DNA from: Mobula hypostoma
Lineage: Eukaryota
DNA: 64,000 bases
Direction: 5' to 3'
NCBI RefSeq assembly: GCF_963921235.1
Contig: NC_086107.1
Coordinates: forward strand, 110,176,001 to 110,240,000
This document shows positions 54,231-58,654 of this stretch, piece after piece. Both the position numbers and the translations under genes were made by a program. The first letter of the stretch is position 1. The number at the start of each line of letters is the position of its first letter. The notes under the pieces are model-generated. The model did no database searches, was not told the DNA's origin, and was given only the letters and a program-made list of their open reading frames with translations.

Positions 54231-56678
54231 TAAGTGAGAGAAATCTCACCATCAAAGTCCCATGAGGTCACAGTCTTTATTTTGCCCACATCCAGCGAGA
54301 GACACCCAACCTCACTCATCAGGATCCTCTCAATACCCTAGTAGCCTTTGCCTTTCGTATACAATGCGGTGTGAAGGGAGAAACACAACTGTTAACTACC
54401 ACGGCCACTGAGTGACCTCAATCTTTCCTGTGAATGGAAATTTTAGGGTTAAGTTTGCTCTTGTTTAGAATGCAGAGGGAAACTTAACTGCAAATTTGCA
54501 GGCAGTACAAGTGGAAGTGGAAGACAGGCTGCGGAGAGTAGAAATAAATTACAGAGGGATATTCATAGGTTAAATGTAGAAAACAGATTGTTATTTATAT
54601 GAAGAAAGGCCACAGAAAGATGCAGCACAGGTTTGTGGGTTACTGCACAGGAAACACAGAAAACTGGCATGCAAATGCAGCGGGCAAGATGGACAGCTAA
54701 TGGAATGCCGTCTTTTACTTTCAGGGAGTTAAAGACAGTAAGTTTTACTACTACTGTATAAGACACTATTGAGAGTACATCTAGAGATCTAAAACTACTT
54801 TTTTAACATCACCATTCATATTCCTTCCCTCTATACCTGTGACTTTCAAAGACTTGCTCATACTGTCTACAACTAAACAAACATTGTATTCATACTACCA
54901 ATGTCTCCCTTATAACTCCTTTATCAGCTGTGCTGATACAGCTGTAATCTGGCACCCTATCAGAAGCTGCTGCAAGTCTATGCACATCACATTAAAACCG
55001 GCTGAACGGGGTTTGCCCTCACAATTCTGTGCTGGCTTGCCGTATTTCATCCACTCCCCTCAATTAATCCCGTTGTGGATCAATATTTTTTGAACCAAGT
55101 GATTAGTTGACGGGCTTATCCTTGGGTGGTTCTTTTTTAGGTCCTAGACTCAAAGGAGAACCTAGGACTAGAGACAGCAAAGACCCTGAATAAGGGGTTG
55201 TCCAACTTAGGCAGAGATGGGGTAGAAAGACTTCTCTCAAAGGGTTGAGTGTCTTTGGAATTCCTTACCCGAGAAAGTAAAGCAGGCTGGATACTTGAAT
55301 CCATGATACTGCTATCTACCTCAGCTTTAAATAAGTAATGAAATCGAGGATTATAGGGACAGGCTAGAAAACTAGATGAGGGAAATTGCATCAGTCATGA
55401 CCTTACTGAATATCAGAATAGGCTTGAGGAGGAAAAAGGCCTCCTCTTGTCCCTATTTATATTACATTAAACTGATAGATCTTCAAGTCTGCAGGCACAT
55501 ATCTCTTAAAACTCAGTGGTGTTAAACATAGGTGCTCTATTTTGGGGCGTCATATTGAAAATGTTTTTTTTTGTAGGAAGAATGGAAAATCAGAATATTG
55601 ATTCACTGTAGGTATTTGGAGGGATCTGGGTGTACTCAAGTACAGAACCAGAACATGGCCACAGAAAGACAGAAGTTCAGGTATCTATTGCATAGCAGAG
55701 GAGTACAAACATGGGTAAATCTTACTGCAATTCTACAGGGCACCTGCAAGAGAACTGCATATTTTTTTTGTCTTTATATCCAGGACAACACAAATTCATC
55801 TTGGAGCTGATGTAGCACATGTTCTCCGAAATGTTACCTAAAGGATAGTTTCATGAACTGTTTTTTTCCATGGAGTCAGCAAGATGGAAACAGAATAATA
55901 GATGCTGAGAGTCCTCCTCCTCTAGCTGAAGAACCTAGAACCAAGAAGCTTTTGGTAATGACTATCTGGACTCTCTTTACTTAGATGGCTTATGATCTGC
56001 AATTCTCCACTTTTCAGATTCATGGTGACTTAGTTGCCCAGTAATATACATTACTGAGAGCAACAGTCTTTTTGGGTATGTCTGGAAAATGGACCAAATT
56101 TGTCATAGTCCTACTAAATGGATCAGCAAACTTAAGAGGTCTTTGAGCTAATCTGCTCTTAATTCTTATGCTCTTAGACATTCATACCTCTGACCACCTG
56201 GGTTATTGTTTCAAATTTCATTTGACACCAAAGATATCATATGGATGCATAGGGTTTCAAGATGGGTTAATAGTGGGTTATAAATGTGATACCAAGGATA
56301 CTCCACTGATCAAGAACATGGCTTTTTGAAGAATCAATGTCTTTTTTTAAGATTACAATACATTGGTGGTACATATCATGGCTGGTTTCCCAAAAAGGCC
56401 AGTGGATTTTCTGAATTTATTGTGCCAGTGTAATATATTTGTGATCTGTGTCACCATACACAGGAATTTCTTTGCTCCTTGTTCATTATTAAATTTTCCA
56501 TCATTAATGAAGTATCCCATACTGTTTTGCTTGGATCCAAATTGAATGTAATCAAATCAAAATCACTGATATACAGGGTGAAAAAGCTTGGATCCCTGAA
56601 GAATAAATTGTGCTTTGTTCTGTCAGTGAGGAAACACTTTTAACCCTACTGTCCCAGACTCCAAACAGTTACTTACTG

Positions 56679-58409
56679 TAGGTCTCTTGGTGGCCTCCCT
56701 CACTAGTCCCCTTCTTGCACAGTCACCCAGTTTTAGAGGACGGCCTGTTCTAGGCAGATTTACAGCTGCGCCATATTCTTTCCATTTCTTGATGATTGAC
56801 TTAACTGTACTCCAAGGGATATTCAGAGATTTGGAGATTTTCTTGTATCCATCTCCTGACTTGTGCTTTTCAATAACCTTTTCGCGGAGTTGCGTGGAGT
56901 GTTCTTTTGTCTTCATGGTGTAGTTTTTGCCAGGATACTGACTCACCAGCAGTTGGACCTTCCAGACACAGGTGTAGTTTTACTACAATCAATTGCAACA
57001 CCTTGACTGCACACAGGTGATTTCCATTTAACTAATTAAATGACTTCTAAAACCAATTGGCTGCACCAGTGATGATTTGGTGTGTCATATTAAAAGGGGG
57101 TGAATCCTTATGCAATTAGGTACTTTGTTTTACATTTGTAATTAATTTAGATCACTTTGTAGAGATCTGTTTTTACTTGGATATGAAAGAGTCTTTTTCT
57201 GTTGATCAGAAAGCCAGATTAAGTCCATTATGATTCAATGTTGTAAAACAATAAAACATGAAAACTTCCAAGTGGGGGTGAATACTTTTTACAGGCACTA
57301 TACACAGGAATGGCTTAAAAACAATGAAGTTAATGTACTGGAGTGGCTAAGTCAGAGAGTCCAGACCTCAATCCAATTGAGAATTTGTGGGGCTGTTCAC
57401 TCATGATCCCCATGCAATCTAGCAGAGCTTGAGCAGTTTTGTAAAGAAGAATGGGGGAAAAAGTACAGTGGCCACATGTGCAAAGCTGTTAAGGTACCTA
57501 ACCTCTCAGATTCAAGGCTGTAATTGCTGCCACAGTTTTGTCAATTTTTTCAGTCTTGGTTTGTCCTGTGTTTTGTGATATCACACCAGAGGAAATAATG
57601 TATCATTTCTTAATGCATGCATTACTAAATGACAATAAAAGAGGACGTGTCTTCATAATCCATCATCTACTGAATACTGACTTGAAGGAGGTGAGTAATC
57701 ACACAATCAAATATTTAGTGTTTCCAATAATTGTAATAAATTTAGACCAATTTGTAGAAATTTGTTTTCACTTTGACATAGACATTGTTGTTCATCAGTG
57801 TCAAAAAACCAAATTAAATCCATTATGATTCAATGTTGTAAAACAATAAAACATGAAAACTGTCAAGTGGGGGTGCATACTTTGTATAGGCACTATAGCT
57901 TTGGCTTTATGCTTGGGGTCATTGTCTTGCTGAAAAACAAATCTTCTCCCATTTAGTTCTCTTGCACACTACATCAGGGTTGCCTTGTATTTTGCTGCAT
58001 TCACTTTACTCTCTACCTTCACAAGCCTTCCAGGGCCTGCTGCAGTGAAGCATCCCCACAGCATGATGCAGCCACCACCATGCTTCACAGTAGGGATGGT
58101 GTGTTTTTGATGATGTGCGGTGTTTGGCTTACAGCAAACGTAACGTTTAGCCTGATGGCCAAAAAGCTCAATTTTGGTTTCATCAGGCCATAGAACCTTC
58201 TTTCAGCTGACTTCAGTCTCCCACATTGCTTCTGTCAAACTCTAGCCGCGATTTCATTTGAGTTTTTCTCCCCGCCCCCCAACAGTGGCTTTCTTTTCGC
58301 CATTTTCCCAGTGAGCTGTGACTGGTGAAGCACCTGGGCAGCAGTTGTTGTATGCACAGCCTCACCTATTTCAGCCACTGAAGCTTGTAACTCCTCCAGA
58401 GTTGTCATA
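56679..58409. mobile_element. Rearranged Tc1 transposon in three pieces (A minus 56679-57300, B plus 57301-57895, C minus 57896-58409)
   Basis: A = left TIR + MKTKEHS...EATKRP; C = MTTLEELQ...QQDNDPKHKAKA; B = TQEWLKNN..VLEW..SPDLNPIENLW + right TIR. Confidence 0.9.
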
Positions 58410-58654
58410 CAGTAAGAAGTGTTCCCTGATTTACACCACAGAAAGGCAACTTGGACTACCACCCCCCTTAGACGCCACTGTATTACAGTGCTCCCTCCAG
58501 TGGTTTCTCACTGTGGTTCTGACGAATAGACATCCTGAACTGTTAACTCTGTCTCTCTCGCTCTCCACAGTTGGTACCTGACTTGCTGAGTACGTCCAGC
58601 ATTTCTGCTCTTATTTTGGACCTGCATTTTCCTTTAATGTTCTTGTAAAAAACA

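Follow-up and report, generated by a model that had tools for sequence, protein, structure and literature searches.

Autointegration of the Sleeping Beauty (SB) transposon yields an inversion product for which a permuted and inverted order, together with a duplicated internal TA, has been described, and autointegration is commoner for larger elements (PMC3952818, in its available text). The formation of SB excision footprints depends on end joining, as stated in the accessible part of a second study (bioRxiv 10.1101/659086). Fusions of host genes with transposase domains were surveyed in tetrapods by Cosby et al. (bioRxiv 10.1101/2020.05.07.082677). The main text of this preprint names no fusion with ATF7IP, and in every case traced there the splice sites lay in the ancestral transposon, mostly as acceptors before the transposase frame. 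Here we analyze a stretch of 64,000 nucleotides from Mobula hypostoma (contig NC_086107.1, positions 110,176,001 to 110,240,000; referred to as the window, with all positions below counted from its first letter), in which one Tc1 element of the inverted repeat/direct repeat (IR/DR) type sits in an intron of ATF7IP. The element appears to be a rearranged autointegration product between two probable excision footprints. The left footprint and its flank form an in-frame splice donor, which adds the PAI DNA-binding domain of the transposase to ATF7IP in predicted NCBI models. It is this footprint-made splice donor that chiefly merits attention.

The element lies between two 7-mers and consists of three pieces (A, B, and M), with two internal TA sites (TA1 and TA2) at which the pieces are cut. 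The features of the element and its outer junctions are as follows.

56674..56680, no strand assigned: left outer junction TA-CTG-TA, with the target-site TA (56674-75), a putative 3-nt footprint, and a copy of the internal TA1 (56679-80)

56679..57300, minus strand: segment A, which runs from the left terminal repeat (about 57088-57300, comprising an outer and an inner direct repeat) as far as TA1

57301..57895, plus strand: segment B, inverted, with a copy of TA2 (57301-02), the broken C-terminus of the transposase (residues 253-332), and the right terminal repeat (about 57678-57895)

57533..57663, no strand assigned: later insertion of 131 nt in segment B

57896..58409, minus strand: segment M, with a copy of TA1 (58408-09), the broken transposase residues 80-252, and a copy of TA2 (57896-97)

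58408..58414, no strand assigned: right outer junction TA-CAG-TA, with a copy of the internal TA1 (58408-09), a putative 3-nt footprint, and the target-site TA (58413-14)

The element belongs to the Tc1 IR/DR elements of the SB type. It combines a paired-like helix-turn-helix (HTH) and a DD34E transposase with terminal repeats of about 200 bp that contain outer and inner direct repeats (D1, D2, D5; end-to-end alignment), CAG tips, and a TA target. The Pfam family HTH_SB is matched above its cut-off (E=2.7e-21). The three pieces align to full transposases of 339 aa at residues 1-79, 80-252, and 253-332, with the DETK, QDND, and PIE motifs in register, and the frame runs on across both TA1 (KRP/MTT) and TA2 (AKA/TQE). 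Residues 1-79 in segment A are free of stops and frameshifts; one frameshift of 2 nt lies between the second D and the E of the DD34E triad.

Related genomes were compared as DNA contigs from four runs (X5, X9, X18, and X20) of the 23 listed, with 15 of 1574 joints and eight contig rows per run inspected. Ordinary copies of the family in all four genomes contain the joint 58407>56679 (31-48 contigs per run) and, on the opposite strand, the joint 57303>57896 (17-19 contigs per run), both with an overlap of 2 letters. Because ordinary copies thus join the pieces normally, with one 2-letter overlap per TA, both TA1 and TA2 are duplicated in the window copy and the permutation is special to it. 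With both element ends joined to one duplicated internal TA and one part inverted, the order of the pieces reads as that of an SB-type autointegration inversion product opened at TA1. The 131-nt insertion is likewise missing from ordinary copies (joint 57532>57664, 8-13 contigs per run). It is a very high-copy repeat, the depth of which is about 200-fold apart between runs (high in X5 and X18, low in X9 and X20). The terminal repeat gave 0 matches against metagenome contigs.

The letters at the outer junctions, TACTGTA and TACAGTA, are exactly those described in the earlier note, which had read them as Tc1 excision footprints. At both junctions a TA is followed by three terminal bases of the element and a second TA, and the inner TA is in each case one copy of the duplicated TA1 inside the transposase. 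The relatives' contigs bear the reading out: the family terminus is CACTG/TA (loose ends at 57272 and 57299 in run X9), so that the family ends in CAG and is able to leave TACTGTA or TACAGTA, which are the commonest SB footprints according to the available part of the footprint study (bioRxiv 10.1101/659086). CWGTA follows 17 of the 3907 TA sites of the window and TACWG precedes 17, which gives a joint chance of 1.9e-5 for both 7-mers at two given TAs. The motif TACWGTA alone is not rare (17 in the window vs. 8-15 expected under Markov models), and two of the 17 occurrences belong to the natural termini of other families. Therefore, only its placement at both breakpoints goes beyond chance. 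We regard the 7-mers at 56674 and 58408 as probably real Tc1 excision footprints. A footprint at TA1 implies that a transposon end once sat there, and the TA on both flanks indicates a TA-duplicated donor site; the triplets, CTG on the left and CAG on the right, are those of ends once on the insert side. Within the 64-kb window, we found one element bounded in this way, as a permuted Tc1, by TACWGTA. Two further occurrences of TACTGTA, at 38749-38755 and 62245-62251, were considered as footprints and rejected, being the natural ends of two other transposon families. Such natural termini call for caution in motif scans for footprints.

The flanks resemble each other beyond the 7-mers. Going outward, 2 further identical bases are followed by 6/7 with one gap, and 64 of 3902 TA sites in the window (1.6%) are as symmetric as the inferred empty site. 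This likeness would be expected if the 7-mers predated the insertion as a palindrome (an older double footprint or a hairpin-forming sequence), the central TA of which the circle entered through a break repair that made use of the TA common to both. Two random TA sites, however, share 7 outward bases at a chance of 1.4e-4, and the shared bases are the footprint of the family itself. The extra symmetry is accounted for by the tendency of SB-type targets to be palindromic anyway (PMC3952818, in the text available). We consider a prior palindrome quite unlikely.

The earlier note had also named an outcome that would speak against footprints, namely flanks that are the termini of an unrelated element. 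This does not hold for the left flank, which has a depth of 2-15 (one contig) in 4/4 runs, compared with about 1e5 over the element, at 85% likeness. This single-contig depth rules out a repeated element ending there at a likeness of at least 85%. More specifically, the flanks might be the outward-facing termini of another Tc1 or pogo element, inserted into the circle at TA1 by its transposase. The orientation CTG/TA...TA/CAG is indeed that of normal strand transfer, and the two other families in the window, at 38749 and 62245, end naturally in TACWGTA. Nevertheless, the copy number of the left flank fails this explanation, the contigs of the right flank run on for 280-330 bases, and the flanks match neither neighbouring family beyond 5-8 bases. 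Pfam recognized no family above the cut-off in 12 flank frames, and we judge foreign termini to be very unlikely. A decayed long interspersed nuclear element (LINE) continuing across the site is left unsupported by the same 12 frames.

A flank contig crosses the left junction in 4/4 runs (X5, X18, X9, and X20) and the right junction in X5 and X18; no right-junction contig occurs among the rows inspected for X9 and X20, which is not evidence of absence. The left-junction contigs end 27-31 letters into mid-transposase sequence, as contigs do at the entry of a repeat. Differences in the left flank range from 19 in 926 (X5, no gaps) to 72 in about 930 (X9, 40 gap letters). Since the filled left junction is common to all four relatives, the insertion is old and shared.

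We propose the following route for its formation. A Tc1 element E would have carried a second, CAG-ended copy H nested at the internal TA1, and excision of H would have left overhangs at this site. The ends of E itself would have been cut and would have attacked TA2 on the opposite strand (autointegration), producing the inverted and permuted order. The resulting linear piece with TA1-CAG overhangs would then have been ligated, through end joining, into the break left by a Tc1 excision, in the simplest case the donor site of E; each 7-mer would thus represent two joined 3-nt CAG overhangs. This event presumably happened once, before the divergence of Mobula and Hypanus. We consider the combination of nested-copy excision, autointegration, and overhang ligation into an excision break the best route, with a probability of roughly 0.5, the order of its steps being a reconstruction. 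Nested insertion followed by clean excision does occur in the M. hypostoma genome, as follows from another Tc1 in the window: at 37816-37822, an insertion of 5 nt at a TA in its transposase frame reads TACTGTA and breaks the frame, and is a probable canonical footprint. The position of this insertion is exact against protein P0080 and split by a few codons against protein P0084.

The earlier note had suggested an additional Tc1 copy at the TA where the circle was opened, acting either through a cointegrate-like intermediate or through ligation of excision overhangs. Such a copy is needed in any footprint model; of the two options, the cointegrate is the less economical. The broader suggestion of the earlier note, the capture of an extrachromosomal circle, falls away as a requirement: a free circle is unnecessary, because a linear intermediate opened at TA1 yields the same sequence. 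In the cointegrate route, a helper Tc1 copy would integrate a free inversion circle, and both flanking helpers would later be excised one by one with canonical footprints. Variants are recombination between a helper in the circle and a helper in the chromosome, or an attack on TA1 by the ends of two sister copies. The final sequence would be identical. SB transposition can draw, at a low rate, on ends that lie on different molecules (0.56% for one solo substrate; PMC3952818, in the available text), and the insertion at 37816, which documents the clean later excision of a nested copy in this genome, helps the cointegrate as well. However, two separate later excisions are required, each of them canonical, whereas more than half of SB footprints are non-canonical (bioRxiv 10.1101/659086, in its accessible part). 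Moreover, neither helper was retained, no composite excision of the whole took place, and no helper remnant is found at either junction in the window, nor in the gap-free left contig of X5. We therefore hold the cointegrate to be unlikely, though deserving of consideration. Two other schemes were rejected. If donor-flank ends had attacked the circle directly, the left junction should carry CAG and the right one CTG, opposite to the observed triplets; and if the circle had simply recombined with another copy of this element, TA1 would be left without a transposon end. A small remainder of probability goes to routes other than those listed.

Several observations weigh against overhang ligation as the route. 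No precursor or empty allele was seen, so H is postulated from the sequence of the product. No empty-site joint occurs among the 15 of 1574 joints, and all four relatives carry the filled left junction. Most junction contigs fall short of the bridging bar of 31 letters, which is reached by X20 only. The symmetry of the flanks (top 1.6%) also fits a prior palindrome, and no sequence feature tells overhang ligation from the cointegrate. Finally, the inner tips of the window copy (57300 and 57895) both read CACTA/TA, in contrast to CACTG/TA in the family, a double change that the model leaves unexplained. Candidates for this A-for-G at the transferred base of both tips are a shared donor variant, conversion, or a mutation hotspot.

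The left junction also coincides with the end of an annotated exon. The gene features, all in the sense of ATF7IP, are as follows.

56671..56676, minus strand (ATF7IP sense): splice donor GTAAGT, composed of G (footprint), TA (target site), and AGT (flank)

56677..56958, minus strand: cassette exon of ATF7IP (282 nt, 94 codons, phase 0), from the mapping of NCBI model proteins

56959..56960, minus strand: splice acceptor AG in the 5' leader of Tc1; the transposase ATG follows after 42 nt

52737..52868, minus strand: next host exon of ATF7IP (SGKTGG...; start 52868, end approximate), joined in frame to the Tc1 exon in the models

The G of the donor is the third footprint base. A bare single TA gives no donor, while either footprint triplet gives one. 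The 94 codons comprise 14 codons of the Tc1 5' leader, transposase residues 1-79, and a last codon made from TA1 plus the footprint, and they contain the entire PAI HTH, the GRP hook, and the start of RED. The domain matches the SB PAI structure 2M8E (E=5.7e-9), and its third helix, VKSIIKKW, is invariant in an alignment of 10 sequences. The N-terminal transposase piece matches isoforms of ATF7IP-like over its full length, with 100% and 96% identity in Mobula birostris and Hypanus sabinus, respectively. In the NCBI models of three species, the transposase domain thus stands in frame on an exon of its own, as expected for a host-transposase fusion; these models are automatic predictions (XP_ accessions), named plain ATF7IP-like. 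The DNA-binding domain of the transposase probably became a cassette exon because the left scar created an in-frame splice donor; we infer from the models both the real splicing of the exon and any selection on it.

The exon is present in 14/16 proteins examined from two clusters (the 15 listed of the 24 members of the larger cluster, plus protein P0003), belonging to M. birostris, M. hypostoma, and H. sabinus, a ratio that is biased since the clusters were found with the exon. The other two of the 16 proteins end in a Tigger-derived exon upstream. The Tc1 exon is absent from the five Pristis isoforms (one checked) and from the other shark, skate, and chimaera representatives. Three derived residues are common to the Hypanus exon and the window and set both apart from the family, which supports orthology, and the Hypanus exon ends in the same junction-made Thr. 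Mobula and Hypanus differ at 4/94 exon residues (4.3%), compared with 48/811 (5.9%) and 12/351 (3.4%) in the host sequence on either side. As a control we used a Tigger frame of the same intron, assumed to be neutral and orthologous, with 19/129 differences (14.7%; Fisher p=0.008 vs. the exon).

These figures bear on the question whether the exon is low-level splicing noise via a chance donor, functionless, with its low divergence a matter of luck. Skip isoforms exist in all three exon-bearing species, and the exon is absent from all eight Hemitrygon akajei isoforms listed (five sequences checked, three judged by length and cluster), where it is unannotated. The exon contains no stop or frameshift, while the other ~760 coding nt of the element have 8-10 (P(0)=0.02-0.05), a test with a built-in bias, since only an open frame can enter a gene model. 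Of the eight listed differences between the exon and the family (best rows), five change the amino acid, giving no sign of strong constraint. The intact frame speaks for a used exon; the skip isoforms, the absence from the Hemitrygon models, and the amino-acid changes speak against it. In addition, GTAAGT occurs four times on the same strand in the 11 kb of the intron that lie within the window. On the other hand, annotations of the exon cover three species from two families and include the longest isoforms (X1), and the divergence of the exon is like that of the host exons and unlike that of the control transposon frame. Splicing noise is a serious possibility, somewhat short of even odds.

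Other transposon sequence is found in and around the locus. The same ATF7IP intron contains a Tigger/pogo element (about 61400-62250 of the window; exon start 61933, minus strand), broken by a stop and a frameshift. It provides a terminal exon in NCBI models of Hypanus and Hemitrygon, with one difference in 152 residues, and an in-frame HTH exon of 56 residues in those of Narcine bancroftii. Several Hypanus models of ATF7IP (P0004) carry a further pogo-type HTH (PF03221) fused at the N-terminus, within the first 170 residues or so; its DNA lies outside the window. Related Tc1 HTH domains occur in annotated host isoforms of other fishes (P0017, P0019, P0045-P0059) and may represent further transposase fusions; examples are RNF181 in Sphaeramia and a conserved uncharacterised protein across pipefishes and seahorses. 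A long CA-rich tract of low complexity at 10825-11940 gives spurious His/Thr frames.

The PAI domain binds the terminal repeats of transposons, and ATF7IP is a partner of SETDB1 in heterochromatin silencing. It is conceivable, if rather unlikely, that the exon-bearing ray isoform is directed to the terminal repeats of the high-copy Tc1 family from which the exon derives, silencing this family or nearby genes. If so, the repair scar of a failed, self-destroying transposition would have grafted the DNA-binding domain of a transposon onto a SETDB1 cofactor, and, together with the Tigger HTH exon in the electric-ray models, ATF7IP in rays would have collected transposase targeting domains repeatedly. 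An exon in use would also make it possible to test directly whether hosts enlist the DNA-binding domains of transposases for targeting their silencing machinery. Autointegration is held to be a suicidal dead end, and this locus appears to hold such a product fixed in the germline. Its junctions point to capture through compatible excision overhangs, which bears on rearrangements in transposon-rich genomes and vectors.

The element resembles the SB autointegration inversion circle (Wang et al., 2014; PMC3952818, as far as its text is available) in that the ends lie on a duplicated internal TA, one part is inverted, and the terminal repeats are direct. Unlike that product, described there as an extrachromosomal dead end in cultured cells, the ray copy is chromosomally fixed, was opened at a second TA, and lies between two footprints. 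The 7-mers are identical to SB/Tc1 excision footprints, and the family ends in CAG, in agreement with the accessible part of Gu et al. (bioRxiv 10.1101/659086). The usual footprint described there joins the two flanks of one donor site, whereas here each of two footprints connects a flank with a rearranged insert. Duplications through circular intermediates and the capture of DNA at breaks (PMC7450558, PMC2671141) offer a further parallel, since a permuted order marks a circle and foreign DNA is captured at a double-strand break; the available portions of these two papers imply no transposase-made overhangs or footprints. In the literature searched, which excluded subscription papers, we found no chromosomal autointegration product bounded by two footprints.

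ATF7IP itself already contains transposon-derived coding sequence, the Crypton recombinase relic (PMC9004415, PMC3212892, in the parts available). In contrast to the young Tc1 exon, that relic is an unrelated tyrosine recombinase of gnathostome age at another place in the gene (PMC9004415, same limit). The closest likeness of the exon is to the KRABINER-type fusions described in the available text of Cosby et al. (bioRxiv 10.1101/2020.05.07.082677), in which a transposase DNA-binding domain is alternatively spliced into a chromatin-repressor gene, the acceptor lies just upstream of the transposase frame, and skip isoforms persist, although in rays this is seen in models only. Neither a footprint-made splice donor nor an ATF7IP-Tc1 exon in rays was found in the literature searched, which did not include the supplements of that preprint. 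Unlike the cases in the available text of Cosby et al., the ray donor is missing from the intact element and arose from a footprint together with the target site. What is new here, and was missed in the earlier note, is that the left footprint and its flank form the in-frame splice donor of an annotated ATF7IP exon: a predicted host-transposase fusion in a silencing gene, with a donor that comes from an excision scar and was not carried by the transposon.

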